DNA from: Minisyncoccota bacterium
GTDB lineage: Bacteria > Patescibacteriota > Minisyncoccia > JAHIHE01 > JAGLIN01
Direction of reading: 5' to 3'
Assembly: GCA_041661265.1 (NCBI GenBank)
Contig: JBAZUT010000009.1
Coordinates: forward strand, 1 to 62,448
DNA: 62,448 nucleotides
Of the stretch, positions 28,401-42,666 are shown in pieces. Numbering within the stretch: the first letter of the stretch is position 1; every line of letters starts with the position of its first letter. The notes below the pieces were generated by a model. That model saw only the letters and a program-made list of their open reading frames with translations, searched no databases and was not told the origin of the DNA. A program made the position numbers and the translations under genes.

Positions 28401-29046
28401 CGCATGATGCACAGTGCATTCCGCTGAGAACAAGATTCACATGCTGATCGCCCGCCTTGGCTGCCGCAATAGATTCAGTTTTGACGGCTTTTTCCTCCTT
28501 GACGACCGGTCCGCTCGCGGAAGAACTTATGCTTCTCGGCGGATTATCCGAGAAAGCCCCCAGAAGCTGATTGATCTTGGACGAATTAAATATGCTCTGG
28601 ATCGCTTTTTCGACATCCTGTCTCCCCTCGGGGATCTCGAACTCACCCCTTTTCAGATGATTTATCTTCCCTTTGAAATTCGGGTTGCCGTCCTGCTGGA
28701 AAAACTCTCCGTCCGCAACAACGGATGATTCAAGCCGGATCCTCACGGGAGAGTTTGCATCCACTATTTTCTTCTCGATGACGACCTCCTCTTTTGACAG
28801 CGCTTCACTATCCGATCCTGATGGAACACCTTCGATAATTGTTCCCTTATAGCCGGCCTTCTCAATCGCCAAGACAATTTCCTCATTTTTCACGATGCTG
28901 TCGTCAAAAACAACCTCTCCCGTTTTATTTTTGAAATCGAACTTGGTGGACTTTACTCCAAAGATCTCCATCACCTCCATATCAATTATCTTTTCGCATG
29001 ACGCGCAATGCATTCCTTCAACTTGTAATTTTATTGTTTTTTCCAT
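25420..29046 (-). CDS. copA: Cu(I) P1B-type ATPase with two N-terminal HMA domains and a ~260-aa C-terminal extension
   Basis: MHCASC x2, [36 protein letters not shown] and MAFSSISV. After the last core TM there is an extra TM plus 263 aa. Confidence 0.9.
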
Positions 29047-29085
29047 AATCTTTTCTTATTAATGAGATTAATCGCCGACAACGGA

Positions 29086-29358
29086 TCAGCTGGTGATCTT
29101 GAAATTCTTAATTAGTTCTTTCACAAAACTTTCACGTTCTTCTTTTTTCTTGGAATTCAGCTTGTGAGCCGCACAAGAATTAAGATGCCCCTCCAGAATC
29201 AGATCATTGGCTCTTTTCAATAGACCGATGGTGGCGTTTACCTGCTGAGCGACATCAACGCAGTATCTTTTATCATCGATCATCTTCTGCAGAAGATTTA
29301 TCTGTCCCTGCGCCTTTTTTAAATTCAGCTGCACTTTGCTTTTATACGGTTCTATCAT
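29086..29358 (-). CDS. csoR: CsoR/RcnR-family metal-sensing repressor
   Basis: 90 aa. KRYCVDVAQQVNATIGLLKRANDLILEGHLNSC matches the C...H...C layout. Confidence 0.8.
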   Translation of the reverse strand: MIEPYKSKVQLNLKKAQGQINLLQKMIDDKRYCVDVAQQVNATIGLLKRANDLILEGHLNSCAAHKLNSKKKEERESFVKELIKNFKITS

Positions 29359-29387
29359 ACTTGTTGATATTAATCATATTATATTTC

Positions 29388-29415
29388 ATTGTACCATGAC
29401 CATAGGTATAGGTCA
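29388..29415 (-). promoter_or_regulatory. promoter of csoR-copA with candidate CsoR operator in the spacer
   Basis: Minus strand: TTGACC, 17 nt, TACAAT. The spacer holds the palindrome TACC-N9-GGTA (29392-29408). Confidence 0.5.
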
Positions 29416-29559
29416 AGAGAAGATCAAAAAAAATAGTATTTTTTTACCAATAATCAAGAAGTAAACACAAGGCTTATTTCAATCACTAAATCGACAAATA
29501 CCGAATATCTGATTATTACATATTGTAATTTTTCATTTTGATATTTTATTTTTTCGTTA

Positions 29560-29760
29560 CTAAAACGCTACCGTCTTATCGGCCTTCGCAAGTGCACTTT
29601 CAATCTCATCTTCCGGCACTTCCCTCTCTGATTCAATTGCGGTTTCTCCATTTTTATTTATTTCCACGTTTGTCACTCCTGGAATTTTCTTTAGGACCAT
29701 ACTGCTAATTTTTATGCACGCGTCGCATGTTATATTCGTGATCGTAAAATTTTTCTTCAT
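29560..29760 (-). CDS. copZ: CopZ-like HMA-domain metallochaperone
   Basis: 66 aa with ITCDACIKI (CxxC) in a ferredoxin-like layout. Confidence 0.75.
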   Translation of the reverse strand: MKKNFTITNITCDACIKISSMVLKKIPGVTNVEINKNGETAIESEREVPEDEIESALAKADKTVAF

Positions 29761-29809
29761 ATTTGGTTCATTAATTATTAATCCGTTAATTCGTAAATCC
29801 GTTAATTTA

Positions 29810-31579
29810 TCAGTTTACCACTTTTATCACTCCCCTCGGAACGCCCATTGCGCAGGTAATGTTGTAATCCCCCGCTTTTTCCGGAGTAAATTCCATTACC
29901 ATCTTTTTCCCGCCCTCAAGATATTGTGCCGAATTATAAAGACCCGGAACCATAACCGAACTCATGCATCCCTGTCCGTCTTCTTTAACATCGATCTCAA
30001 ATCTGACCGGAACTCCCTTTTTTACCTCGAAATTATTCGGAACTATATCTTTCGATAAAGTATAATCGGCTTTTATGATCTGCCCTTCGTTCGTTTTCGC
30101 CTGAGGCTGAGTCGCAACAGGATCTATGTTCTTTTTTGCGCCGCCTCCGCATCCGCAACCGCCGCCTCCCGATCCGCAGCTTCCGCCTGCCTGTGCCTGA
30201 ACATTGTCTGAGCTTGGACTCGGACTTGAATTGCTTGCGCCAGCTCCGGATCCCGGCTCAACCACGATGAATTTTCCCCTATACATCCCCATGGAACATG
30301 AGAAAGGTATTTCTCCTGTTTCTTTCGGGACGAACTCGATCACATTCTCGCCCTTCTTCAAACTCTTTGAGATCCCGTATTTGGGCATCACTATCGAACT
30401 TGCACAGGAGAATTGATTCGTTGACGTTATGATCCACCTGACCTTTTTTCCTTTTTCAACCGTAAGCACATTCGGCGTATATCCGGTGTTCCCTTGTGTC
30501 ATTTTCACTTCCTGAACTTCCAAAGAACTGCTCGCGACATCAATCGCACTATCCGCCTTTCCCTGGAAAACCAGCTGGCTTCCATTCGTTATATTTATCC
30601 AGCCTAGAATTATAACCGCCAAGCCCGTCGTTGCAAAAAAGGTCCTTGCGTTTTTTCCTTTGAACATTGAAGAAAGTCCCCCTATTCCCAGAAGTCCCGG
30701 AGCGGTTCCAAGCGCAAAAAGAGACATAATCAGCGCGCCGTTCACGAATCCTCCGCTTCCAACCGCATAAAGCTGCATGGCCTGAGTAAATCCGCATGGA
30801 AGAAAAAAAGTCAGTGCCCCGGTAATGGCCGCGCCTTTGTGGCTGTATTCTTTCTGTTCTCTCTTGATGCCAAGCGCCTTTGAAATCCCCTTGGGAAGAG
30901 ATATTGTAATGTCTTTCATGAACGGAAATATCTCAATAAGCTTCAGGCCCAAAAAGATCATCACTCCTCCGATTATTATCGTCATAAGTCCCATTGAGCC
31001 CGGAGATGGCTGAAACGCCGAACCGATCATTGCAAGTATACCTCCGAAGATCCCGAAGCCTGCTATTCTTCCAAGATTGAAAAACAGATGAGGCCGGAAT
31101 TTCTGGCTCGAGGTTATTTCCGGATGCGCCTCGGCATGTTGCGCGGAAATGCTTAGCACAAGCCCTCCTACAAGAGCCATGCATGTCGACACGCCCGCCA
31201 CAAGACCCACCATCAGAACCACGGGATAGCTTACATTTTCCGAATTGACGCTATAATCAAGAATACCCGTAAACTTGGCGACAAAAAAAATAATAATTAG
31301 GATTATTATCCCGTTCAACAGGTTATTGTAATCATTTTCGTCTTTTGATATCCATTCAACTTGGTTTTTATATCCGACATCATAGCCTATATTCTTGACT
31401 GCATTATATATCGCCTCCCCTTGAGACGGAATGCCCTTTTTGAAATATAGATCGGCTTTTCCTGTCCTGTAATTTACTTCAACATTTTTGACGCCAGGAA
31501 CATCTTTCAGCGCTTCCTCAACCAGCAACTCGCAGCTCCGGCAATGCATACCCTTGATCGGTACTGTGACTTTGTTCAT
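29810..31579 (-). CDS. HMA domain - polytopic membrane domain (TauE/DsbD_2-like) - two cupredoxin-like domains
   Basis: MHCRSC at the N-terminus. About 6 TM helices. Repeats FSCASSIVMP..FSCSMGMYRG and CMSSVMVPG..ITCAMGVPRG, separated by the Gly/Cys linker GGSCGSGGGGCGCGGG. Confidence 0.7.
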   Translation of the reverse strand: MNKVTVPIKGMHCRSCELLVEEALKDVPGVKNVEVNYRTGKADLYFKKGIPSQGEAIYNAVKNIGYDVGYKNQVEWISKDENDYNNLLNGIIILIIIFFVAKFTGILDYSVNSENVSYPVVLMVGLVAGVSTCMALVGGLVLSISAQHAEAHPEITSSQKFRPHLFFNLGRIAGFGIFGGILAMIGSAFQPSPGSMGLMTIIIGGVMIFLGLKLIEIFPFMKDITISLPKGISKALGIKREQKEYSHKGAAITGALTFFLPCGFTQAMQLYAVGSGGFVNGALIMSLFALGTAPGLLGIGGLSSMFKGKNARTFFATTGLAVIILGWINITNGSQLVFQGKADSAIDVASSSLEVQEVKMTQGNTGYTPNVLTVEKGKKVRWIITSTNQFSCASSIVMPKYGISKSLKKGENVIEFVPKETGEIPFSCSMGMYRGKFIVVEPGSGAGASNSSPSPSSDNVQAQAGGSCGSGGGGCGCGGGAKKNIDPVATQPQAKTNEGQIIKADYTLSKDIVPNNFEVKKGVPVRFEIDVKEDGQGCMSSVMVPGLYNSAQYLEGGKKMVMEFTPEKAGDYNITCAMGVPRGVIKVVN

Positions 31580-31694
31580 TTGTTTTGTATTTATTTATTA
31601 GTAATACTGCAATTATGCATAAAAGATCCGGCAAATATTTCTTTCCTATTTTTTCGCTTTCGCGGCCTTACGGTCATTTGAACCGCATAATAAT

Positions 31695-31734
31695 ACCTAC
31701 TATTCATTGTAGTAGGTTAGATAAAACTTGTCAA
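31695..31734 (-). promoter_or_regulatory. promoter with palindromic operator ACCTACTA-N7-TAGTAGGT over the -10
   Basis: Minus strand: TTGACA (31734-29), 17 nt, TACAAT (31711-06). The palindrome spans 31695-31717. Confidence 0.65.
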
Positions 31735-31770
31735 GAGATTTATATCCACAAAAAGAACGTGCGGATTAGC

Positions 31771-34011
31771 TCAAATGTTTATCAGATCCTTTTCCGCGCT
31801 TTTCAAGAAGACGGCATTGGTCGCCACGATGATCGAAGATATGCTCATCAGAAGAGCTGAAACTTCAGGCCTTAAATATATACCATAACCGGGATATAAT
31901 AATCCTGCTGCAACGGGTATGGCCAAAATATTATAGATCGACGCCCAAACAAGATTTTGCTTCATTTTTCTGACTGTAGCCTTTGATAATCGGATGGCTC
32001 TTAATATATCGGCCGGGTCGGATCTCATCAGTACCACCTTGGCGGTTTCGATCGCTACGTCCGTGCCGGCGCCGATCGCGATCCCGATGTCCGCCTGCGC
32101 GAGAGCAGGAGCGTCATTCACGCCATCACCCACCATCGCCACGAATTTTCCTTCATCCTGAAGTTTCTTCACATAAATGGATTTTTCTTCAGGCAGAACC
32201 TCGGAAAAAACGCGATCAATGCCAACTTGCTTTCCGACCGCTTCTCCGGTTTTTTTGTTATCGCCGGTGATCATTGCCACCTCCAGACCCAGTTCCTTCA
32301 TGCGCAATATGGCGATCTTTGCAGTGGACTTTATGGGATCAGCGGCAGCAAGCACTCCGGCCATTTTTCCGTCTATTGCGATCATAATTATCGTTTTTCC
32401 CTCATTTAGCATTTGCTCAAAATCTCCCCGAAGAACTGAAACATCGACATTTCTGTCCTTCATAAGCTTCATGGTGCCTGCCAGAACATGCCTCCCCTCC
32501 ACTGTCGCCTCCAAACCTAATCCGGACAATGATCTGAAATTTTCCGCATTTTCAGAAAAATTTATACCCCTCTTGTTCGCTTCCTCCAAAACTGCCCTGC
32601 TGAGGGGATGCGCGGATCTCATTTCAACGCTGGCTGACAATCTTAATATTTCGTCTTCAGAAAATCCTTTAACGCAAACGATATCCGTTATTTTCGGCTT
32701 CCCTTCGGTCAAGGTTCCCGTTTTATCCAGAACGACAGCCTGAATCCCGGATAGCCGCTCAAGAGTTGAGGCATCCTTGATCAATATATTATGTTTTGCG
32801 CCAAGACCCGTGCCGACAGCGACAGCCGTGGGAGTTGCAAGGCCCAATGCATCGGGACAAGCGATCACTATGGTAGAAATGGCAAAAGTTAAAGCGAACA
32901 TCAGAGATTCGCCCATCACAAAATACCAAACAAAAAAAGTGAGCAATCCGCCGCCCACTGCCACAACAACAAGATATCCGGCAAATTTATCCGCAAGCCT
33001 CTGTCCGGGCGCTTTGGAATTCTGTGCAGTCTCGACCATTTTTACGATTTGGGCGAGTGCAGTATCCTTTCCGACTTTTGTGGCTTTGAATTTCACAGAA
33101 CCGGATTGATTGATCGAACCGCCGGTGACGCTATCTCCGGCTTTTTTTGAAACAGGGATCGATTCTCCCGTTATCAATGATTCATCGATCGCGGTTTCGC
33201 CTTCAATGACCTCCCCGTCAACCGGCACCTTGTCGCCCGGCTTCAGGATCAGAATATCTCCGATCTTAACCTCAGATGTCGGAATGATCGCCTCTTCGCC
33301 ATCCCTGACGACTCTGGCGCTTGGCGGAACAAGAGCAAAAAGCGCCTGAAGCGCATCGGTTGTTCCCCTTCTAGATTTCATTTCCATCCAATGCCCGAAC
33401 AGGACAAAAGTAATAAGCATTGCCGCCGCTTCATAAAAAGAATCTTCACTGCCCATTAGGGTCAGGATCAAACTGAAAACATACGCGGCAGTGATTCCGA
33501 CCGCAATAAGCACTGACATATTAAGAGCCCTCTTTTGGAGAGCTTTATATGCGGAATAAAGAAAGATCCAGCCGGCATAAAAAAATACCGGCGTAGTGAG
33601 AATGAACAAGATCCACGTAGCGGGAATAAGAGAGGGCAGCTTCAAACCGAATATCATTTCTCCCATCGGAGAATATAGAATGATAGGAATTGTCAAAAGA
33701 AAAGCGAAAAAGAATTTATTTCTGATGTCGATCTCCATAAGCCGGGCCATTTCCCGCCCCGCCAAACCCGTATGATCCATGCCCATGGTCATCGTCATGC
33801 TCATTTTAAATTTTTCCCAAAAGGACATTCCTCCGGAAGATCCCATTGTGTGTTCATGATGATCGTGCATTTCATGATCCGAGGCTTCACCGGATCTGCT
33901 ATTTTCGACCGGAACCAGTTTCATTCCGCATTTCGAACAATTTCCGGGCTCGGTTTCCCTGATCTCGGGATGCATGGAACAGGTATAGATCACATTTTGA
34001 CCTTGGTTCAT
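31771..34011 (-). CDS. P1B-type heavy-metal ATPase, CopB-like, with CPD instead of CPC/CPH
   Basis: N-terminal YTCSMHPEI..CSKCGM and the His-rich HEMHDHHEH. Also TGES, ACPDALGLATP, DKTGTLT, GDGVNDAP, YNILAIP and MSISS. Confidence 0.85.
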   Translation of the reverse strand: MNQGQNVIYTCSMHPEIRETEPGNCSKCGMKLVPVENSRSGEASDHEMHDHHEHTMGSSGGMSFWEKFKMSMTMTMGMDHTGLAGREMARLMEIDIRNKFFFAFLLTIPIILYSPMGEMIFGLKLPSLIPATWILFILTTPVFFYAGWIFLYSAYKALQKRALNMSVLIAVGITAAYVFSLILTLMGSEDSFYEAAAMLITFVLFGHWMEMKSRRGTTDALQALFALVPPSARVVRDGEEAIIPTSEVKIGDILILKPGDKVPVDGEVIEGETAIDESLITGESIPVSKKAGDSVTGGSINQSGSVKFKATKVGKDTALAQIVKMVETAQNSKAPGQRLADKFAGYLVVVAVGGGLLTFFVWYFVMGESLMFALTFAISTIVIACPDALGLATPTAVAVGTGLGAKHNILIKDASTLERLSGIQAVVLDKTGTLTEGKPKITDIVCVKGFSEDEILRLSASVEMRSAHPLSRAVLEEANKRGINFSENAENFRSLSGLGLEATVEGRHVLAGTMKLMKDRNVDVSVLRGDFEQMLNEGKTIIMIAIDGKMAGVLAAADPIKSTAKIAILRMKELGLEVAMITGDNKKTGEAVGKQVGIDRVFSEVLPEEKSIYVKKLQDEGKFVAMVGDGVNDAPALAQADIGIAIGAGTDVAIETAKVVLMRSDPADILRAIRLSKATVRKMKQNLVWASIYNILAIPVAAGLLYPGYGIYLRPEVSALLMSISSIIVATNAVFLKSAEKDLINI

Positions 34012-34143
34012 GATAGATAATTATGGATAGTATATTTTCTATATTCTTACCGATCGGCTGACTACAGATGCCGCAAGATTTTTTTGCGGCAGAACATCGG
34101 CTATGTGTTCATTATATCATTTTCAGCGAATTCCGGCGACCCG

Positions 34144-34356
34144 CTACTTCTTCGCAATATGCGATTCCGGATCCTGGCTGAACTGATCTTTGCAGTGATC
34201 AGAACAGAAATAATAGGTCTTTCCGTGATACTGATATGTGATCAGACTTTTTGTCGCTTCCATGCCGCAAACAGGATCAATAGCTTTCGGTTCGGGTATT
34301 ATCCGATAACCGAGAGCCTTTATCTTCCTGAATAACGATTTGTATTTATTTGACAT
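34144..34356 (-). CDS. YHS/TRASH-domain protein
   Basis: DPVCGMEA..YQYHGKTYYFCSDHCKDQF. Confidence 0.75.
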   Translation of the reverse strand: MSNKYKSLFRKIKALGYRIIPEPKAIDPVCGMEATKSLITYQYHGKTYYFCSDHCKDQFSQDPESHIAKK

Positions 34357-34395
34357 AGTTTGTGGATTTAGTTATTAAAGCACACGCTCCCTGAA

Positions 34396-35658
34396 TTATG
34401 TGAACCAGATCAGCATGATCGCACCGAGGGCTATCATTACAGCCGCTCCGAAAACCTTTATCTGCGGGACTTTGGATTGCTCCCATCTCTGGAAAACTTC
34501 CAGCGTCCTCTTGTTGGACATCGCAAGAAGTATGATAATAAGCGGCATTACGAACATTATATTATAAAGTATGAGATATCCGAATCCGATCGCGGACGTT
34601 GTCTGTGAGACAAGCAGGCCTATTATGGCGACATAGATCCCTCCTGAGCACGGGAATGTGCAGAGCCCGACGAAAAAGCCGAGAATAAAAGCCGAGGGAA
34701 GCGTTGCCTTGTGGACGTATTCTTTGATCGTTCCTTTCGCAATGTGAGGTATTTGGAGCCTTATCGGGAAGCTCGGAATGAGAATGCCGATGATATTTAT
34801 GATCCCAAGGATTATAACGAGCCATGCTCCGATCTTTGCCATGGCGTGGGGAGCGTTGATGAACATCACTGTACTGACCAGCCCGAGTCCGATCGCAAGA
34901 TAGGCGAGGAATATGGCCGCGATATATACGACCCCTGTTTTCCAAACGTCTTTCTTGGTCCTCTTCAGGGTGTAAAGAAACGAAATAAAAAAGAGAAGGA
35001 CCGCAAAAGCGCAGGGATTTATCCCGTCCAGAAACCCGGAAACGAGAACGATCGGCAGAATGAAAGCTTCTTTATTCGAATTCGCTTTAAGCTCGTTTTT
35101 GTTATTTTCAAGATAGTCAAGGTATTCGCTGATCGGTGTGCCGATGGGGTAAGTCTTCGGCTCGCCCATATAATCATCTGCGTAGTTCGGGATACCGAAT
35201 ATTTTATAATTCTTGGCTTCACTGCCCATGTCGTCCTGGAAAACCAAAAGTCTCTTGAATCTTGAGCTGTTATCTTCGTTGAACATTTCCCCGACAATAT
35301 GATCCGGCATATGTCCCGCCATGATATATTTATCGCCGACAAATGTCATGATGTGGCCTTGCAGATCGAGGGGGATCCCGGCATCCTTCATCCTCCTGTT
35401 CATCTCAGGCCTGATATCTTTTCCGTTTATGTAATCCCTTTTGTCGATCTTGTTTATTCCCGCACCCTGAAGCTGCCTGGGAAGATCGTTCTTTACATAA
35501 TCCGCACACATTCCGCAAGCTTCGTTATAATATAATATGGCCTCCTGAGGATCTGATTGGGCTTGGGCGTTATGCGCCGGATGAGCAAAAAGAGCAAAAA
35601 TGTAAAATAATATAGCGGCGCAGGAGAATAATCCCTTCTTCAAATTTTTCTTTGCCAT
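34396..35658 (-). CDS. DUF411(CopG-like) domain fused to a CcdA/DsbD-type thiol-transfer membrane domain
   Basis: Signal/TM region, then YYNEACGMCADY..GIPLDLQGHIMTFVG..MAGHMPDHIV (DUF411-like). The membrane domain carries DGINPCAFAVL and FPCSGG. Confidence 0.65.
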   Translation of the reverse strand: MAKKNLKKGLFSCAAILFYIFALFAHPAHNAQAQSDPQEAILYYNEACGMCADYVKNDLPRQLQGAGINKIDKRDYINGKDIRPEMNRRMKDAGIPLDLQGHIMTFVGDKYIMAGHMPDHIVGEMFNEDNSSRFKRLLVFQDDMGSEAKNYKIFGIPNYADDYMGEPKTYPIGTPISEYLDYLENNKNELKANSNKEAFILPIVLVSGFLDGINPCAFAVLLFFISFLYTLKRTKKDVWKTGVVYIAAIFLAYLAIGLGLVSTVMFINAPHAMAKIGAWLVIILGIINIIGILIPSFPIRLQIPHIAKGTIKEYVHKATLPSAFILGFFVGLCTFPCSGGIYVAIIGLLVSQTTSAIGFGYLILYNIMFVMPLIIILLAMSNKRTLEVFQRWEQSKVPQIKVFGAAVMIALGAIMLIWFT

Positions 35659-35703
35659 AAATATGTCTGTTAATAATTAACTTCCGTTACAAGATTATAG
35701 CGA

Positions 35704-35979
35704 TCAGTGGCACCCATGGCCTGAATGCGGCGCATCGCCATTTCCCGTCCCGTCCGGACCATGCTCTTTTCCACTCTTGCCGTGCGATCTTGCCATCATA
35801 ATGAAATGCCCGACCATGAAAACTCCCATCAGACCGAAAATAAACCATTTTGATGATCCACTCGCCAATCCGGCACCTCCCAATAAAAGAATAGCTAGCG
35901 GCAGTACAGCACAGCAAAATAACATCATAAGCATCATTCCAAGATCAGATTTACCGTTGTCATGATTATCCATATTCAT
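35704..35979 (-). CDS. small His/Met/Cys-rich membrane protein (DUF2933-like)
   Basis: MMLMMLFCCAVLPLAILLLGG followed by a second TM. The C-terminus is HSGHGCH. Confidence 0.55.
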   Translation of the reverse strand: MNMDNHDNGKSDLGMMLMMLFCCAVLPLAILLLGGAGLASGSSKWFIFGLMGVFMVGHFIMMARSHGKSGKEHGPDGTGNGDAPHSGHGCH

Positions 35980-36018
35980 ATAATTATATTGTTAAGATTA
36001 TTTATATTAGTCTTTTAT

Positions 36019-36537
36019 TTAAACGGGTACTTGCTTAACCCGATCTCCATATCTGCAAATTACGCTCTTTTTGATATTCTCACACAATAGATATATAGAT
36101 ATCAGCAAGAATATTATTCCGGAAAGTTTGATCTCCAGACCGCGCAGGGGCAGAGTCATAAGACCGAATGGCATTCCAAGCAGAGCCAGGAGCGGCGCTC
36201 CGCATGACGGGCATCCGGAAACTATTATACCGGTTCCTATCCCCAGAATTCCCGCGGGTTTCCCATTTGAAAGCTTGATCTTATACCGGAGGTCGCTCCG
36301 CAGGATCAAAAGTGAAATGAACAATCCGGAAAGAACCGATGAAGAAAGCGCCATTATCATCGAAATTATCGTGTATGCGGTTCCGTTCATTTCCGCATAG
36401 ATATCCAGGTCTTTTCCGGACACATTGACAACCGTAAGATAATAGGAAACCGCCTCCACAAATAGCATAGCGGCAATCGCCGGCAAAAAATACCTTTTTC
36501 TTTTTATTATGATCTGTAAGAATTCAATCATTATCAT
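36019..36537 (-). CDS. polytopic membrane protein with intramembrane CPSC motif
   Basis: 172 aa with ~4 TM helices and IVSGCPSCGAPLL. Start overlaps the upstream stop by 4 nt. Confidence 0.6.
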   Translation of the reverse strand: MIMIEFLQIIIKRKRYFLPAIAAMLFVEAVSYYLTVVNVSGKDLDIYAEMNGTAYTIISMIMALSSSVLSGLFISLLILRSDLRYKIKLSNGKPAGILGIGTGIIVSGCPSCGAPLLALLGMPFGLMTLPLRGLEIKLSGIIFLLISIYLLCENIKKSVICRYGDRVKQVPV

Positions 36538-37055
36538 TTGATTACGTTCCCCGAAAATGTTATGACGCTTTTTGCATTTCCTTTTCCTCCGGTGTTGCTG
36601 ATTATATTGATCACCCTTGTTATCGGACCTACCGCATCCGGCCCGTGCGCCAGCGGATCAAAAACGGCCTCCAAAACAGCCGACTGCCCGGGAGCGATCT
36701 TTTCGGACCAGAACAGGGGCTTTACGCCATGTCCCGGCATGCTGAATTCCGGGCTTCTTCTTCCATCAACTACCAGCACGACCTTCGTGCACGCGCACGA
36801 AGTGCTGATATCGGTTATTTCCAGCGCCTGATCTCCGTCGTTCTTGATCTTAAATTCGTGGCGAGCAAGCCCGTTCTTCATGGATATATCCCCGAAATCA
36901 TAATCGGTTTCGGCTATGCTCAATTTGGCACTTCCGCCTTTTCCGCTCACTTCGCCATTTTCACCGAAAAAAATAAATGCTCCCGCGCCAAGGATCAAAA
37001 CTGCGAAAATCACTGCGAAGATCTTCGCGCGGGGATCTATCGATGCATTCTGCAT
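36534..37055 (-). CDS. DUF1573-like secreted/anchored protein
   Basis: N-terminal TM, then YDFGDISMKNG..HEFKIKNDGDQALEITDISTSCACT. Confidence 0.65.
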   Translation of the reverse strand: MQNASIDPRAKIFAVIFAVLILGAGAFIFFGENGEVSGKGGSAKLSIAETDYDFGDISMKNGLARHEFKIKNDGDQALEITDISTSCACTKVVLVVDGRRSPEFSMPGHGVKPLFWSEKIAPGQSAVLEAVFDPLAHGPDAVGPITRVINIISNTGGKGNAKSVITFSGNVIK

Positions 37056-37073
37056 ATGTTTATATTATTGATG

Positions 37074-37790
37074 TTATTCAACGATCAGCTTACCTTCCGA
37101 ATTTCCTCCGTCATAGAATCTGAACGATCCTTTTTTGTCTGCCTTGAAAACAACGCTTTGCGACTCGTCTCCCGCGTCGATCGTCTTTGCTATATTATAT
37201 TCATCCATCCTGAAATCGTATTTGGAATCCGGCTTGGCAAACTTGAGTTCCACATAAGTATTTTTCTTCGTTTTTATCTCAACCGGATCAAATTTACCGT
37301 TCTCATTTTTGATCTCATATGTTGCATTGCTCTCAGGCTTTATGACATTTGCGCTGATCTCTATTTCTTTTTCAGGAATGTTCTTGTCATTCGTTTTTAC
37401 ATATACGACCCTCTTGATCTCTCCCATGTCTGAATAGTTTCCATGGATCGCGGGATTCATGGAAACGGTCATGCCGGAGCTTTCCCCCGGAAATATTATT
37501 TTTACTCCATTGTTCATCTCGGCTTTCGTGCATCCGCATGACGTCGAGATCTTCAATATCTCCAGATTTTCATTCCCTGTATTTTTTATCGTAAATTCCT
37601 TTTTGGAAATTTCGCCATAAACCACTTTCCCGAAATCATATGAAGCAGGACTCGCTTCGATAGCGGGACCTCCCGCGACCTCCCGCGCTTTCCTGAAATT
37701 TCCGTAGTCGATCAGCGGCCTGTAGAAATACGCGACTGAACCTATCGCTATTACGATCAGGCATGAAAGAATAAATTTTGCTTTTGGCAT
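37074..37790 (-). CDS. DUF1573-like domain + C-terminal beta-sandwich (cupredoxin-like?) domain
   Basis: N-terminal TM, then YDFGKVVYGE..FTIKNTGNENLEILKISTSCGCT. The C-terminal ~100 aa is beta-rich. Confidence 0.6.
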   Translation of the reverse strand: MPKAKFILSCLIVIAIGSVAYFYRPLIDYGNFRKAREVAGGPAIEASPASYDFGKVVYGEISKKEFTIKNTGNENLEILKISTSCGCTKAEMNNGVKIIFPGESSGMTVSMNPAIHGNYSDMGEIKRVVYVKTNDKNIPEKEIEISANVIKPESNATYEIKNENGKFDPVEIKTKKNTYVELKFAKPDSKYDFRMDEYNIAKTIDAGDESQSVVFKADKKGSFRFYDGGNSEGKLIVE

Positions 37791-37834
37791 ATTGTTTTTT
37801 TTATACCGTATAAATGCAAAGATCCGCCCAACCT

Positions 37835-38992
37835 CTATTGCCCGGCAGAGCCCGGTTCAGGACTTATGATCTTTCCGCTTGCGAGGTCTTTATAGACGCC
37901 AAGCTGCTTTACTCCTTCCCTGAGAACATATGCGGACCCGTTCTCAACGGTTCCGATGCCGGGCCAGATCTTCGTCAGATTCTCGTATGCGCCGGGATCT
38001 CCCGTCATGATGATCACAGGGATCTGTCCGATCTTATATTTTTCGATCGTTTTTTTCGCTTCAACGCTTTCAATATCCAGGCTTTTTTTATCGCGGAATT
38101 TTATCCCGAAATTGCCGATCACCTGCTCGAAGCTGTTCGCGTCAAAACACTCAGTGCATGACTTATCGGAAATAATGGTCGCATCCACCATACCCCTGAC
38201 TTTGCCGCTTGATATCTCCCTATAGGGCGGGCTGACTTTGGTCAGAACGAAGATCCCGTCGTTGATATTTCCTATCTGATTCAATATCGGATAGCTTTCA
38301 AGGTCTCCCGTAATTATCACGGTAGGCACATTCTTTATTTCATTTTTATTTATAACTCTTTTCCCTTCCGGAGATGAAGCATCGACGCTGTCCTGGCTGT
38401 CGATCGCCATGCCAAGCTGCGTTTTGACCGCATTCACATATACATTCGGATCGAAACAGTTTGTACATGATGTGTCCGTAACAAGGATCAGATCAACCCT
38501 GCCCTTGGGCTCGCCTGTTTCAGCTGAAATATAGGGATTGCCTATTTTCGTCATTATAAAAGCTCCATCTTTGATCTCACCGGCTTTTGCAAAAAAATCT
38601 TTCAGCGCCTGATCCCTTTCGATCTCTCCGCTCACTATGACCGTCGGGATCTTCTTAATGGCATATTTTTTAATAAGCTCTTTTCCTTCATCACTGGAGA
38701 TCTCAAGTTCCCGCTCGGAAGTTATGCTCACCTTTTGTTTCTTAATGGCATCGATCATGGGCTTTACATCAAAACAATCGATACAGATGGAATCTTTTAT
38801 CGTGATGACATCCAATTTTGACGGGCTTTCAGCTTCTCCTGATTTGACGGAAAGCCTATCCAGATTCTTATTCGTGAGCGCAAGCGACATATATCCCGCA
38901 GATAGTGCAGTAGCGAAAATTACCGCAATAGGGATAATGATCCGGGATCTCAAGGGCACATTTGAACTCTGCAATGTTTTTTTCATATTCAT
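37835..38992 (-). CDS. membrane-anchored protein with three thioredoxin-fold-like CxxC repeats
   Basis: Start set at the ATG at 38992; the track start at 39112 overlaps the upstream gene. Three ~110-aa repeats each carry C(I/T)(D/N/E)CFD and a downstream (I/V)P(T/V)(V/I)I motif. Confidence 0.65.
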   Translation of the reverse strand: MNMKKTLQSSNVPLRSRIIIPIAVIFATALSAGYMSLALTNKNLDRLSVKSGEAESPSKLDVITIKDSICIDCFDVKPMIDAIKKQKVSITSERELEISSDEGKELIKKYAIKKIPTVIVSGEIERDQALKDFFAKAGEIKDGAFIMTKIGNPYISAETGEPKGRVDLILVTDTSCTNCFDPNVYVNAVKTQLGMAIDSQDSVDASSPEGKRVINKNEIKNVPTVIITGDLESYPILNQIGNINDGIFVLTKVSPPYREISSGKVRGMVDATIISDKSCTECFDANSFEQVIGNFGIKFRDKKSLDIESVEAKKTIEKYKIGQIPVIIMTGDPGAYENLTKIWPGIGTVENGSAYVLREGVKQLGVYKDLASGKIISPEPGSAGQ

Positions 38993-39023
38993 ATGATTTG
39001 GTCTTATAAAGACTTTATTTTTC

Positions 39024-39407
39024 TTAGCAGCCTCCGACCATGTTCGGAAGACTGTCGATGCTTGAAGGGACAGCAGCTGAGGAACTGCCTGATCCGAAAT
39101 TACCGCCTTCAATTTTCTTCATGACATTATACGACTCCAAGGCCTGCAATATCGAAACAGAGGTCAGAATGATCAGAATGAACGTCACTGTCATGCTTCC
39201 CCACTGGAGTCTGCCTTTCGTTTTGCTCTTCTCAATGCTCCTGATTATCGCTTCCTCGACCGGCCCGCTCTCTTCTTTGGTCTCAACGGCCGGCTGTTTG
39301 TGAGTCAACATATGCTTGTTCAATTCATTTATGTTTTCATGCCTCATTCCGCACAATTCGCAGTGCACTGAAGCTCCCGCTTTTTTTGAAATTTTTTTGT
39401 TTTCCAT
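39024..39407 (-). CDS. single-pass membrane protein: cytoplasmic C2H2-like zinc finger, external tail ending LPNMVGGC
   Basis: CELCGMRHENINELNKHMLTH, then the TM segment VTFILIILTSVSIL, and the C-terminus SIDSLPNMVGGC*. Confidence 0.6.
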   Translation of the reverse strand: MENKKISKKAGASVHCELCGMRHENINELNKHMLTHKQPAVETKEESGPVEEAIIRSIEKSKTKGRLQWGSMTVTFILIILTSVSILQALESYNVMKKIEGGNFGSGSSSAAVPSSIDSLPNMVGGC

Positions 39408-39456
39408 ATTTTTTTATAAATAATAATTATATATAAACATAAGCTGACGTTCTCTA

Positions 39457-40269
39457 TTATGAACACCCTCCGACCATGCCGGGAAGATTCTCTATTTCCG
39501 AGGGAAGCGGCACCTGTTTGTCTCCTTTTCCGTAATCGGGAAGCTTCGCTCCGAGAAGGATCGCTGAGACATCGGGGGTATAACTCCCGCTTTGGAGCTG
39601 GCCCGCCACTTTCTTTATCATCTGTTTCGGAAAATACATGCCTTTCCACTTGGCCAATTCCTTCAGGATCTGGTCATCGGTGTATTCTCCGCCGTGATTC
39701 TGGAGAAGATATGCCGCCAAGCCTCTCATGGCCATGGCGTGCGCGCACCCGCAAGCGGTCTTTCCGTTCGCAAAAATTATCGCCTTCGCCCCGCAGCAAT
39801 ATTCGCATGATATTTTCGTTCCGATCGCGCTATACCGTTTCAGATTCTCTCCTTCCGGAATTATCCTTTTTCCTCCCGGCTTGAGATCATAAGGATCGAA
39901 CTGGCGCATGACATTCATCGACTGCTGGACCTGATCGAAAGACACTCCGAGTTCTTTTCCATAGACCTCCGGCACTCCGCTTGAGATCACAAGGCTGATC
40001 GCGTCCTTTCCAATATCCCCGGTCAATTCTTTGCTGGCGTTCGCAGACACCGCAAATTGCTTGCCGTTTTTACCGGTAATATTTCCGAAAATGTCTCCCG
40101 CAACATCTTTTATCCCAAGCTTCGCATTTGTTGAATTCAGAAACACTTGATTCGCGCCCATTGTTATTATCAGCGCAAGGAGCAGACCAATGTTGACGAC
40201 GGACATTCCTCGCGATTCGTTCTCTTTCTCTTTGAAAGTCGGATCTGATACACCTTTATTTGTGTTCAT
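39457..40269 (-). CDS. membrane-anchored Cys-cluster protein ending LPGMVGGCS
   Basis: N-terminal TM, then SCEYCCGAKAIIFANGKTACGCAHAMAMRG, and the C-terminus SEIENLPGMVGGCS*. Confidence 0.6.
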   Translation of the reverse strand: MNTNKGVSDPTFKEKENESRGMSVVNIGLLLALIITMGANQVFLNSTNAKLGIKDVAGDIFGNITGKNGKQFAVSANASKELTGDIGKDAISLVISSGVPEVYGKELGVSFDQVQQSMNVMRQFDPYDLKPGGKRIIPEGENLKRYSAIGTKISCEYCCGAKAIIFANGKTACGCAHAMAMRGLAAYLLQNHGGEYTDDQILKELAKWKGMYFPKQMIKKVAGQLQSGSYTPDVSAILLGAKLPDYGKGDKQVPLPSEIENLPGMVGGCS

Positions 40270-40287
40270 TTTTGTTTGATATTGATT

Positions 40288-40327
40288 AACTACTATACAG
40301 TGTAGTAGGTTATTAATTGCCTGTCAA
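40288..40327 (-). promoter_or_regulatory. promoter with palindromic operator AACTACTA-N7-TAGTAGGT over the -10
   Basis: Minus strand: TTGACA (40327-22), 17 nt, TACACT (40304-299). The palindrome spans 40288-40310. Same architecture as 31695..31734. Confidence 0.65.
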
Positions 40328-40370
40328 ATTTACGCTGTTGAAAAGTTCCGTAAAATAATTTCTCCATATA

Positions 40371-40400
40371 AACAAAAAAGCGCCGTGACTCATTTCGGCG
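40371..40400 (-). terminator. intrinsic terminator after the BlaR1-like gene (hairpin flanked by T-runs on both strands)
   Basis: CGCCG-(10 nt)-CGGCG followed by CUUUUUUG on the minus strand. Confidence 0.6.
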
Positions 40401-40462
40401 ATTTTTTAAGATAAAAGATTCTAAATTTTTATTACTGAGATCACTGGCTCCATCCTAACGCT

Positions 40463-41509
40463 TCACTGAGCTTCGCAAGTCTCGTTTATTTCATGGCTGA
40501 CAGCATGCTGCATATCGCATGTTTTTTGCTCGTTCGTAAGCGCATCGAAAAAATCTATTTTCTTATTGTTTTCCAGAGTGCAAAGTCCCCCGCTATGCAT
40601 GTCATATGCCTTCGTACTGTTCGTGAGAGCGGATAGCACTGCCATTGATACGAAGACAAAAACGATCGAACAGGCGATCAGGCTTTTTCCAATATGCCTG
40701 AAATCCGGAACATACGCATTATCGGAAAGACGGTTGATCCTTTCAATAATGGCGGAACTTGATATGTCCGATGCCAGCCTGCTCTCTTCCTGTTCAGTGA
40801 TCTTGTAGATCGCGCTTGCCAGCTTCGGCTTGCCATACGGCTTGACGCAAGCCTGCTCATCGGCGGAAAGCTCGGAAAAAGTCAGATACTTCCTGACAAG
40901 TTTTCCGATCCCCGGAAGGATGAACAGTATATTCTGGAAGTATATGGCAATGAACAATTTCATAGGCTCATGGCTCTCCATATGCTGTTTTTCATGCAGA
41001 AGAACGGCTTTCAGTTCGGATCTGTCCAGCAGTTTAACAAGAGAACTCGATATGCAAATTTTCGGCTTCAGGAACCCATAGCAGAAAACGACCGCATCTT
41101 CACTACTGCACTCTATGACTCTTTCTTTTGCGATACCCAGTTCCCGGACGGCACAGCTCAGTTTCCATGAATGCTTCCTTGCGGCGCAGGAGGAAGAATA
41201 ATATTTTGAATACTTTTTGGTTGCAAAATATAATTTCAGGAACCTATGGACCGAAAATAGCATGAACGAGAATATCGCGAATGCAAAAATTCCCACTTCC
41301 GCAAATATGACCGGGTGCATATTCAAAAACTGGACGACATCCGTACACTGGCACGCAGTGCGCAAATGATGATAGAGAACTCCGAGATACAGATCCGCCT
41401 CGTTGTATATCCTGAATGATAAGAACATGATCGCGCCCACTACCAAAAATACTGCAAGCATAAGCTGTCCGAATGCGTAGTTGGTTTTTCTGGCATATAT
41501 CGGAGCCAT
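40463..41509 (-). CDS. BlaR1/MecR1-like M56 peptidase-family membrane sensor, short form
   Basis: HEKQH (HExxH) after TM helices. The ATG at 41509 lies 1 nt after the BlaI-like stop. The C-terminal tail holds 3 Cys. Confidence 0.65.
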   Translation of the reverse strand: MAPIYARKTNYAFGQLMLAVFLVVGAIMFLSFRIYNEADLYLGVLYHHLRTACQCTDVVQFLNMHPVIFAEVGIFAFAIFSFMLFSVHRFLKLYFATKKYSKYYSSSCAARKHSWKLSCAVRELGIAKERVIECSSEDAVVFCYGFLKPKICISSSLVKLLDRSELKAVLLHEKQHMESHEPMKLFIAIYFQNILFILPGIGKLVRKYLTFSELSADEQACVKPYGKPKLASAIYKITEQEESRLASDISSSAIIERINRLSDNAYVPDFRHIGKSLIACSIVFVFVSMAVLSALTNSTKAYDMHSGGLCTLENNKKIDFFDALTNEQKTCDMQHAVSHEINETCEAQ

Positions 41510-41510
41510 A

Positions 41511-41897
41511 CTATTCGATAAGTTTTTTAAGCTTGCTCTTCCACTCCTTCGACTTCCTGGAATCCGAACTCTCAATGATATCAAAAAATTGCGCGACAGC
41601 CACATCGCCATATTCCCTGAGAAAGCCCTTGATTATTTTTTGTGACTTTTCCTGGATAAAAGCTTCTTTCTCCTTCATTGATTCATAAACAAACGCTCCG
41701 CTCGCGTTGAGCTTTCTTTCTAAAACTCCTTTGTCATAGAGCCTCGACATCACGGTCATCACTGTAGTGTATGCGATCTTCCTTTTTTTTTGCATTTCCA
41801 AAAGAACATCTCTCACAGACGCGTTTCCCGCTTTCCACACGATCTCCATTATCTCCGATTCCAGATCGCTTAATATCTTTATGTTGTTCTTTGCCAT
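41511..41897 (-). CDS. BlaI/MecI/CopY-family winged-helix repressor
   Basis: LSDLESEIMEIVWKAGNASVRDV...IAYTTVMTVMSRLYDKGVLER. There is no C-terminal CxC metal motif. Confidence 0.8.
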   Translation of the reverse strand: MAKNNIKILSDLESEIMEIVWKAGNASVRDVLLEMQKKRKIAYTTVMTVMSRLYDKGVLERKLNASGAFVYESMKEKEAFIQEKSQKIIKGFLREYGDVAVAQFFDIIESSDSRKSKEWKSKLKKLIE

Positions 41898-41912
41898 ATC
41901 TGTAATTAATTC

Positions 41913-41931
41913 ATACTACACTAGATAGTAC
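41913..41931. promoter_or_regulatory. third copy of the TACTA-N7-TAGTA palindrome, upstream of the BlaI-like gene
   Basis: ATACTA-cactaga-TAGTAC, 16 nt upstream of the ATG at 41897. Confidence 0.5.
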
Positions 41932-42031
41932 CGCATCCATTAAAAAAACGCAAGTTTACATTTATACACACCAAAAAAAGTTACCCTGGCGCATATGCCC
42001 GAATCAATCCGGTTTATTCCCATCAACGTAG

Positions 42032-42166
42032 CTACTTTTTGTTTATATATTTCCAGAGAGCAGCAATGGCCAGTATCAGAAAAGCTATTACCAGCAAATA
42101 AATAGTCCAAGCAAAGAACATCATACTGCTTCCGCCATAACCCATCATATAATTATAATCCATCAT
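42032..42166 (-). CDS. small Met-rich membrane peptide (44 aa), not in the ORF track
   Basis: AAGGAGGTG RBS 7 nt before the ATG. Sequence MMDYNYMMGYGGSSMMFFAWTIYLLVIAFLILAIAALWKYINKK*. Confidence 0.55.
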   Translation of the reverse strand: MMDYNYMMGYGGSSMMFFAWTIYLLVIAFLILAIAALWKYINKK

Positions 42167-42394
42167 ACTTATTCACCTCCTTTGTTTTGAATTACTGAAT
42201 TGCATTTTGCAAAAATAATTAACAAAAATGAAACTATTTTTTCACCTCAATTCGCCATTACTCTATGATACAATCATACTAGATACGAAAAAAGGCACAA
42301 GTCCGCGCTTATGCACAATTATAAAATAAAAACGGCCTTTATCACTTCTTATTTTCCGCATTTCGTGGTCAGTTGAATGTCATACGATTAGGGT

Positions 42395-42592: not shown

Positions 42593-42666
42593 TGGTCGGG
42601 GTACTGGGAATCGAACCCAGTCTACATCCTCCCGAAGGATGCGTACTACCGGTATACCATACCCCG
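42593..42666 (-). tRNA. tRNA-Pro (CGG), CCA encoded
   Basis: Hand fold: acceptor CGGGGTA/TACCCCG, anticodon arm CATCC-TTCGGGA-GGATG (G37), T-arm CTGGG-TTCGATT-CCCAG, A73 then CCA. Confidence 0.9.

Follow-up and report, generated by a model that had tools for sequence, protein, structure and literature searches.

A set of six minus-strand genes, here called g1 to g6, lies at positions 36,019 to 40,269 of a 62,448-nt contig (JBAZUT010000009.1, assembly GCA_041661265.1) from a Minisyncoccota bacterium; this whole contig is referred to below as the window. The original prediction had singled these genes out as an uncharacterised six-gene envelope module with cysteine motifs. All six open reading frames (ORFs) are present where they had been placed, and the ORF list, hydropathy and the public gene call agree with the transmembrane (TM) segments, cysteine motifs and spacings ascribed to them. 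In the identical public contig, from a sequencing-run assembly with an independent gene call, g1 to g6 encode proteins of 270, 127, 383, 238, 173 and 172 aa. The genes are separated by gaps of 49, 31, 44 and 18 nt and by one 4-nt overlap.

39457..40269, minus strand: g1, N-terminal TM anchor, Cys-cluster ectodomain and C-terminal ...LPGMVGGC(S); 270 aa
39024..39407, minus strand: g2, small TM-anchored peptide ending ...LPNMVGGC; 127 aa
37835..38992, minus strand: g3, TM anchor and three thioredoxin-like repeats with CxxC and cis-Pro-type IPT/VPT/IPV; 383 aa
37074..37790, minus strand: g4, TM anchor, DUF1573 (STSCGCT) and C-terminal cupredoxin-like domain; PF07610 59.8 bits against a cut-off of 26.1, PF13473 42.7 bits against 27
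36534..37055, minus strand: g5, TM anchor and DUF1573 (STSCACT...GM...DPLAHGP); PF07610 58.2 bits against 26.1
36019..36537, minus strand: g6, 4-TM protein with GCPxCG in TM3 and an LPFxGxE loop; 172 aa, C109-P-S-C112 inside the third hydrophobic segment

Far from being a self-contained unit, these six genes open a 10-gene operon whose last gene encodes a CopB-like ATPase. The module as first described is thus upheld as a conserved, linked block and revised in its bounds: it is the front of a longer operon, and its evolutionary core, by comparison of related loci, is g1 with one or two MVGGC-tail peptides and not the six-gene set. As far as the databases and literature searched show, the g1-g6 module is conserved and undescribed. 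No pathway of such composition was found in Pfam, NCBIfam, PDB or the literature searched, as the original prediction had supposed, and a search of the literature on copper-thioredoxin systems of the Candidate Phyla Radiation (CPR) and of DPANN archaea found no description of the module. What is new here is two protein families, g1 and g6, and a conserved C-terminal motif common to two domains of life; the system as a whole, read as a metal-induced envelope thiol-redox and copper-handling operon, is of a kind already known.

The g1 protein and the MVGGC-tail peptides

The g1 protein has one TM segment by hydropathy (residues 21-39) and only six cysteines, C155, C158, C159, C173, C175 and C269, the first five of which lie in the motifs SCEYCCGA and ACGCAH (C155-E-Y-C-C-G...C173-G-C-A-H177). 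Residues C155, E156, C158, C159, C173, C175 and H177, together with the MRG that follows, do not vary in 48 sequences and hardly vary in the whole set of 80 loci from a survey that was seeded on g1 and took one genome per species. Sequence and profile searches revealed no relative of g1 in Pfam, NCBIfam or PDB. Its AlphaFold model has a mean predicted local distance difference test score (pLDDT) of 82, with values above 90 in the core and of 64-79 in the tail, and a Foldseek comparison with PDB gave no fold match (best E 2.7). An exhaustive profile search of 1.84 billion clusters returned 275 representatives of the family, nearly all of 200-280 aa. The 10 longer representatives were scanned for informative domain fusions and none was found, the only additions being one FKBP domain and one weak PliI match. 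A relationship of g1 to PCYCGC (PF13798) proteins encoded on islands of this kind was considered and rejected (hhalign probability 0.6%, no Pfam match).

The g2 product carries CxxC...H...H near its N-terminus, one TM segment (72-90) and a 37-aa tail. Its N-terminal motif had been taken for a C2H2-type finger; this was discarded as a feature of the system, with zf-C2H2_4 scoring 17.9 bits against a cut-off of 27 and the region absent from 15/15 aligned homologues. The ends of g1 and g2 coincide in ...LP(G/N)MVGGC, to which g1 adds one Ser, and this shared tail, like the copper context described below, goes beyond what the original prediction had observed. In 73/78 loci, the one or two small genes that come after g1 encode TM-anchored peptides of 50-130 aa with MVGGC at the true C-terminus. 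The last five residues are identical in 96/99 within-locus pairs of g1 and peptide, and in 84 of the 96 identical-tail pairs the 15 coding bases differ synonymously; the identity of the tails is therefore selected at the peptide level and does not reflect a recent copy. Further, the g1 tail deviates from MVGGC in four loci (MAGGC, QVGGC twice and QSGGC), and in all four the peptide tail deviates identically. Ahead of the tail, 27 DPANN peptides have MNYEMHG or MMARMHPD motifs, and Met/His runs of this sort occur in envelope proteins that bind Cu(I). A search for loci with selenocysteine (TGA) in place of the tail Cys found none, and a literature search for MVGGC yielded no description of such a protein tail.

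The closest relatives of g1 occur in genomes of Patescibacteria (CPR), the CPR loci being at 45-61% identity. Other g1 loci are found in DPANN archaea, namely Woese-, Pace-, Nano-, Micr- and Aenigmarchaeota and Diapherotrites. Across CPR (L001-L017) and DPANN (L018-L080) the family shows 35-55% identity and an identical tail, which implies transfer between the two domains. Homologues are linked and not scattered: about 10 CPR genomes have the full array blaI-blaR-g1-g2-g3-g4-g5-g6 in the order of the window, in most cases with a DUF411-like-CcdA gene next to it, and the Cys motifs vary little or not at all between homologues. In DPANN, the gene after g1 and the tail peptides is commonly a DUF411-like-CcdA gene. 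Of the 41 related loci whose flanks reach 5 kb or more on each side, 27 have a P1B ATPase and/or CcdA-type gene. Some labels of metagenome-assembled genomes in the survey, 'uncultured Gammaproteobacteria' and 'Methanosarcinales', look unreliable, as the loci are syntenic with those of Patescibacteria and with DPANN-type loci.

The DPANN neighbourhoods of g1 contain many further uncharacterised families. A 4-TM family with VVCCSHF occurs in 71 loci. A Cys-loop regulator in 45 loci is TM-anchored, has a DUF7343/MarR-type winged helix and is often encoded divergently from g1. A Met-rich CMSGMMIGMT membrane cluster was counted in 40 loci, although single-linkage clustering merged P-type ATPases into it. 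DUF5676, a 4-TM CVIC family, PCYCGC, DUF302 and DsbA-like proteins are also present.

We suggest tentatively that g1 and the MVGGC-tail peptides may be an undescribed cell-surface device common to CPR and DPANN, presumably by inter-domain transfer. A Cys5-His domain without detectable structural relative would be combined with membrane-tethered peptides by way of a co-evolving Met-x-Gly-Gly-Cys-COOH arm, which might be either a mobile Cu(I)/thiol shuttle or the substrate of a new C-terminal cysteine chemistry, with g3, the DUF1573 proteins, g6 and CcdA as dedicated redox support. In a related account, which we regard as unlikely, the invariant MVGGC would serve for recognition or reaction, for instance as a swinging thiol arm or as the point at which the C-terminal Cys is modified or attached; g1 would act as enzyme or dock on its own tail and those of the peptides, and the copper genes would be mere neighbours. 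The steady pairing of g1 with tail peptides, the synonymous differences beneath their common last five residues, the covariation in all four deviant loci of a tail that is always the true C-terminus, and a confident g1 model without PDB fold match are all in keeping with it. On the other side, no recognisable catalytic motif or informative domain fusion is seen, the g1 model reaches only moderate confidence in its tail, and a Met plus a terminal Cys is explained equally well as a Cu(I) ligand pair. This account is, moreover, compatible with copper handling rather than exclusive of it.

Operators, regulators and the copper island

The region 25420-42172 (17 kb) of the window is a copper island regulated at two levels, by BlaI/BlaR and by CsoR, because it has shared operators together with CsoR, CopA, CopB, YHS and HMA genes. 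Besides g1 to g6 it holds the following features.

41914..41930, no strand assigned: operator O1, TACTACACTAGATAGTA, upstream of blaI, TACTA-N7-TAGTA pattern
41511..41897, minus strand: BlaI/MecI/CopY-family winged-helix repressor, 128 aa, no Cys; PF03965 78.8 bits against a cut-off of 22.6
40463..41509, minus strand: BlaR1-type M56 membrane protease/sensor, 348 aa, with Cys-rich ectodomains and HEKQH; PF05569 35.3 bits against a cut-off of 31
40291..40327, minus strand: promoter-like TTGACA-17-TACACT (site 40327-40299) and overlapping operator O2 (palindrome TACTA-N7-TAGTA, 40291-40307), directly upstream of g1
35704..35979, minus strand: small protein of two TM segments, with CC in the first and a His-rich tail that ends in GHGCH, as read from the sequence
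34396..35658, minus strand: signal/TM segment, DUF411-like thioredoxin-type domain (CGMC) and CcdA-type domain of 6-7 TM segments (NPC/FPC)
34144..34356, minus strand: YHS/TRASH metal-binding domain protein; PF04945 59.1 bits
31771..34011, minus strand: CopB-like P1B ATPase with HMBD and His/Met-rich N-terminus, CPD in TM4, YN and MSISS
31694..31734, minus strand: second promoter/operator unit, with O3 at 31698-31714, before the HMA-DsbD_2-cupredoxin gene
29810..31579, minus strand: HMA, DsbD_2 membrane domain and two cupredoxin-like domains
29089..29373, minus strand: CsoR-family metal-sensing repressor; PF02583 71.5 bits
25420..29046, minus strand: CopA-type Cu(I) P1B-1 ATPase with 2 HMA, CPC, YN and MAFSS

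The pattern TACTA-N7-TAGTA occurs three times in the 62-kb window, compared with 0.01 occurrences expected by chance, and the three sites precede blaI, g1 and the HMA-DsbD_2 gene. The 41-nt promoter/operator unit of g1 recurs at 31694-31734 with 76% identity, and in 11 CPR loci the operator pattern immediately precedes the homologues of g1 and of blaI. The single operator-controlled promoter that had been proposed for the module is supported by these findings, the -35/-10-like elements before g1 overlapping the palindrome, and TACTA-N7-TAGTA is probably the operator of the BlaI-type repressor.

Upstream of g1, the BlaR1-type M56 protease is encoded together with the Cys-free BlaI-type repressor, and the Penicillinase_R and M56 (HExxH) matches are both above the Pfam cut-off. 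In the protease, a loop with CxC...HP, the HExxH and three C-terminal Cys are kept across 10 CPR homologues. Its length in the public gene call is 348 aa vs 585 for BlaR1, and the NCBIfam model is matched only at positions 107-344; the penicillin-binding (transpeptidase-like) C-terminal sensor domain is not present, and the ectodomain is short and Cys-rich. The CopY-type C-terminal metal site, CxCx4CxC, is likewise absent from the repressor, which scores 45.7 bits against a cut-off of 122 for TIGR02698.

Downstream of g6, with gaps of 39-132 nt, follow the genes of the His-rich 2-TM protein, the DUF411-like-CcdA fusion, the YHS protein and the CopB-like P1B ATPase. The 2-TM protein has no Pfam match; its homologues occur in 15 related loci, and similar small proteins of related loci end in GGCH or GGCCH. 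The N-terminus of the CopB-like ATPase consists of an HMBD (YTCSMHPE...CSKCGM) and a His/Met-rich stretch. Copper pumps usually have CPC or CPH in TM4, and among 21 related ATPases of the fetched loci in which this motif was readable, 19 have CPC, 1 CPH and 1 CPD. The second unit of the island, under the same operator type, comprises the HMA-DsbD_2-cupredoxin protein, CsoR and CopA. In the first of these, the two cupredoxin-like domains are joined by a Gly/Cys-rich linker, GGSCGSGGGGCGCGGG. The csoR gene stands directly before copA with a promoter-like site of its own (29416-29388), placing a classical Cu(I) sensor beside the BlaI/BlaR control.

Several other features were noted at or beyond the island's edge. 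A 46-aa Gly/Met-rich TM ORF (42035-42172, minus strand) precedes blaI and has relatives in 10 related loci. A tRNA-Pro gene (42593-42666, minus strand) lies about 400 nt outside the island with its 3' end towards it; a direct repeat of this 3' end, as an integration scar, was sought at the far side of the island and none was found. The window is bacterial, as its genes for MurJ, FtsX and CCA-adding enzymes show. It has two PolyA_pol/CCA-adding-type nucleotidyltransferase genes, at 13548-15020 (plus strand) and 47162-49537 (minus strand). The product of the latter is 791 aa long, and its head-domain match is split.

Probable thiol-redox partners and the proposed mechanism

The repeats of g3, of about 105 aa each, have CIDCFD, CTNCFD and CTECFD at residues 70, 176 and 279, followed by IPT, VPT and IPV, respectively. 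Thioredoxin_3 is matched at 24.8 bits, exactly at its cut-off of 24.8, and other thioredoxin families score below their cut-offs. The match to TIGR02187 (protein disulfide oxidoreductase, PDO) has an E-value of 3e-6 and 26.6 bits vs a cut-off of 185, and PDB matches, at E 0.06-1, are nearly all thioredoxins and two-domain PDOs. The C..C and P(T) positions are kept across 19 homologues, most of which have two repeats. Of the three thioredoxin-like repeats that had been claimed, the CxxC/cis-Pro motifs are thus evident in the window, but the third repeat is found only in the window and in one other locus, L078. By these profile and motif matches, g3 appears to be a membrane-anchored multi-thioredoxin protein, weakly closest to thioredoxins and two-domain PDOs.

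The CcdA part of the downstream fusion has two Pro-Cys motifs, INPC216 and TFPC337, in hydrophobic segments, and G..NP is kept in homologues. It scores below the cut-offs of SfLAP (20.2 vs 35 bits) and of the ArsG family, its best NCBIfam match (38.9 vs 200), and is a distant relative only of CcdA/DsbD_TM. The DUF411-like domain has no Pfam match even at E up to 10 and no PDB sequence match. In a tblastn search of plasmids it matched 71 records, of which the top 15 are all annotated DUF411, at 30-35% identity and a best E of 1e-4. The earlier label of a DUF411-CcdA fusion may hold for its first part by these plasmid records, although not by Pfam, and the CcdA part is under cut-off. The two domains form one protein in 12 related loci and are encoded by separate, neighbouring genes in 5 DPANN loci. 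In 10 CPR loci, a DUF1573 gene stands immediately before a CcdA-only gene. Thus, the CcdA-type proteins are paired with either a DUF411-like domain or a DUF1573 protein.

A CcdA-type protein beside the PDO-like, multi-thioredoxin g3, and the DsbA-like and other Cys-bearing membrane proteins of related DPANN loci, might suggest a general extracytoplasmic disulfide-isomerase/reductase (folding) pathway of CPR, comparable to DsbD-DsbC/DsbG or CcdA-ResA and with no specific metal link. We consider this quite unlikely. The module is regulated and not constitutive, its operator is common with the CsoR/CopA unit, and it is in the same operon as the YHS protein and the CopB-like ATPase; one would not expect to meet a housekeeping folding pathway on a metal island, and such a pathway would have no use for g1, g2, g4, g5 and g6.

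The DUF1573-type domains with STSC(G/A)CT that had been assigned to g4 and g5 are clear, both scoring more than twice the cut-off. To our knowledge, DUF1573 (PF07610) has no known function. TSCxCT is kept in 11 homologues of g4 and 16 of g5, and across the latter 16 the C, C, M and H of g5 (GM, DPxAHGP) are kept as well. The NCBIfam entry OS_HP2, a (seleno)protein family, matches DUF1573 members. Natural selenoprotein members of DUF1573 have UGC at the CxC motif (PMC9312934), and the residue at that position is therefore reactive.

The cupredoxin domain of g4 lacks type-1 copper ligands, with no Cys or His in residues 150-238, and is found in the window only, being absent from the aligned homologues. 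These observations bear on the least probable of the readings weighed here, a maturation pathway that would load copper into an extracytoplasmic cuproprotein (e.g. the nearby cupredoxin-like domains), as in TlpA-Sco-PCuAC. Cupredoxin_1 domains in g4 and in the HMA-DsbD_2 protein fit such a pathway, and thioredoxin-type reductants are known to prepare copper chaperones (TlpA/ScoI). The g4 domain, however, is without Cys/His ligands and missing from all homologues, and no recognisable cuproenzyme is annotated among the island genes examined. The CsoR repressor and the two efflux ATPases point to detoxification rather than to cuproprotein maturation.

In g6, the invariant columns are GCPxCG, LPFxGxE and a C-terminal Cys. 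Sequence searches gave no match in Pfam, NCBIfam or PDB, the best Foldseek E-value was 1.8, and all of its 138 homologues are annotated as hypothetical. The g6 model has a pLDDT of 75 overall. Comparison with other Cys-bearing membrane families of the same islands gave hhalign probabilities of at most 6%. The gene is paired with DUF1573 genes, and some loci have a duplicated DUF1573/g6 pair. Such pairing of DUF1573 genes with g6 or with CcdA-only genes, much as MerP with MerT, would suit a thiol relay of the Mer kind that takes up a thiophilic metal or metalloid (Hg, Ag, Cd, As), and in which g4/g5 surface proteins with CxC/CxxC pass it to the Cys pairs of g6 and the CcdA/ArsG-like protein and across the membrane. 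The Cys pair of g6 lies inside a TM helix, and the ArsG permease is the best NCBIfam match of the CcdA part, at a score far under cut-off. This relay nevertheless seems very improbable: no MerA/MerB-type or arsenic-type enzyme is annotated among the island genes examined (25420-42172), g6 has no similarity to any Pfam family, MerT/MerC included, and both ATPases have Cu(I)-type YN and MxxSS signatures. Toxic-metal import without a cytoplasmic detoxifying enzyme would also make little sense. The mercury account was rejected as the main one for lack of MerA and because of the Cu-type ATPase signatures.

We favour, with modest confidence, a role of g1-g6 as the front of a copper/thiol-stress-induced surface system, in which Cys/Met proteins would handle Cu(I) and CcdA-fed thioredoxin-type proteins would keep them reduced. 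In this proposal, the BlaR1-type protease would detect stress outside the cytoplasm through its Cys-rich ectodomains and inactivate the Cys-free BlaI-type repressor. Derepression at g1 would then give a single transcript from g1 to the CopB-like ATPase. At the external face of the membrane, g1 (with its five-Cys/His cluster and Met-x-Gly-Gly-Cys arm), g2 and the two DUF1573 proteins (CxC plus His/Met) may capture or pass on Cu(I), and the ATPases would meanwhile export copper. The DUF411-like-CcdA protein, which the original prediction had already suggested as a source of reducing equivalents for the module, would carry cytoplasmic electrons to the surface, to g3 and/or the DUF1573 proteins, which may keep motif cysteines reduced and mend wrong disulfides formed by copper catalysis. 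The g6 protein might serve as a second membrane thiol or metal relay partnering the DUF1573 proteins. In favour of the proposal stand the copper genes of the operon and of the neighbouring unit, the conserved operator and BlaR residues, the CxxC and cis-Pro-type motifs of g3, the selenocysteine variant of DUF1573, the pairing of CcdA-type proteins with DUF411-like or DUF1573 partners, the Met/His motifs of the DPANN tail peptides and the analogy with the Scs system.

Several points weigh against this proposal. Both g1 and g6 are without detectable relatives of known function, and their roles are drawn only from motifs and neighbours. In g1, the five-Cys/His cluster could bind Zn in a structural role and not Cu(I), and the g6 model is poor around CxxC (pLDDT about 50). 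The repressor is BlaI-type and not a proven metal sensor. The CcdA part is below the family cut-off (DsbD_TM 18.7 bits vs 27.1), and the DUF411-like motif is C48-G-M-C51 (ACG(M/A)CA in homologues), not the Cu4-binding CxCC. Finally, about one-third of well-flanked g1 loci have neither an ATPase nor a CcdA gene within 8 kb.

CPR bacteria and DPANN archaea make up a large part of microbial diversity, have tiny genomes and live attached to other cells. For such organisms, the inventory of the surface matters. The g1, g6 and DUF1573 proteins now have a context that can be tested, namely a copper island that is under regulation and has electrons supplied by a CcdA-type protein. If the proposal is true, it would show how organisms with neither an outer membrane nor the classical Dsb or Cus machinery protect surface thiols from copper, and DUF1573 would for the first time be assigned a function, that of partnering CcdA-type membrane proteins. 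The C-terminal MVGGC, which is invariant and covaries, offers a clean experimental handle and may be a new metal-binding or redox motif.

Comparison with known systems

The regulatory pair resembles BlaI/BlaR1 (MecI/MecR1) in joining a Penicillinase_R repressor to an M56 HExxH protease and in an inverted-repeat operator that overlaps promoters, but the known penicillin-binding sensor domain is replaced here by Cys-rich ectodomains. It differs from CopY, which has a CxCx4CxC site where the repressor here has none, and whose cop box is TACAnnTGTA compared with TACTA-N7-TAGTA.

CopG, of the DUF411 family, is a thioredoxin-fold, copper-binding copper-resistance protein encoded next to copA, and its CxCC and nearby Met residues bind a Cu4 cluster (PMC7558416). 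The CcdA fusion has an N-terminal ectodomain that matches annotated DUF411 genes and differs from CopG in its CGMC motif, in not being detected by the Pfam DUF411 model and in its fusion to a membrane electron transporter. Similarly, g4 and g5 are clear members of the DUF1573/OS_HP2 family with the family CxC motif, and their linkage to CcdA or g6 in a copper island is a new context. As in MerP/MerT, the gene for a surface Cys-pair protein lies beside that for a small membrane protein with a helix-embedded Cys pair; unlike in that system, no homology to it is detected (no Pfam or NCBIfam match of g6 or g4/g5 to Mer families), MerA is absent and the ATPase signatures are of Cu type.

The CcdA/DsbD pathways (CcdA-ResA/CcmG and TlpA-ScoI) similarly place a two-Cys membrane domain (NPC, FPC) beside extracytoplasmic thioredoxin-type acceptors and keep surface cysteines reduced. 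Here, in contrast, the CcdA domain is under Pfam and NCBIfam cut-offs, there are no cytochrome c maturation genes, and the acceptors are apparently DUF411-like and DUF1573 proteins.

The Scs system is a copper-linked envelope operon in which a DsbD-type reductase is coupled to thioredoxin-fold proteins for copper tolerance (PMC10907172, PMC5524982, PMC3322552). Among the Scs proteins are membrane-anchored and Cu(I)-binding ones, and the system protects envelope thiols (PMC10907172, PMC5524982, PMC8900818, PMC3322552). ScsABCD of Salmonella, Proteus and Caulobacter thus shares with the present operon a copper link and a membrane electron transporter feeding thioredoxin-fold CxxC proteins. This likeness is functional only, as none of g1-g6 has a Pfam or NCBIfam match to Scs/DsbA-type models. 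The transporter is ScsB in that system and a short CcdA type fused to a DUF411-like domain here, where g3 is a tandem, PDO-like chain of 2-3 domains; g1, the tail peptides, DUF1573 and g6 have no counterparts in Scs, and regulation is by CpxR/CueR there and by BlaI/BlaR1 here. Overall, the resemblance of the g1-g6 operon to Scs and to the CcdA/TlpA-type pathways appears, by analogy, to be one of logic and not of ancestry.

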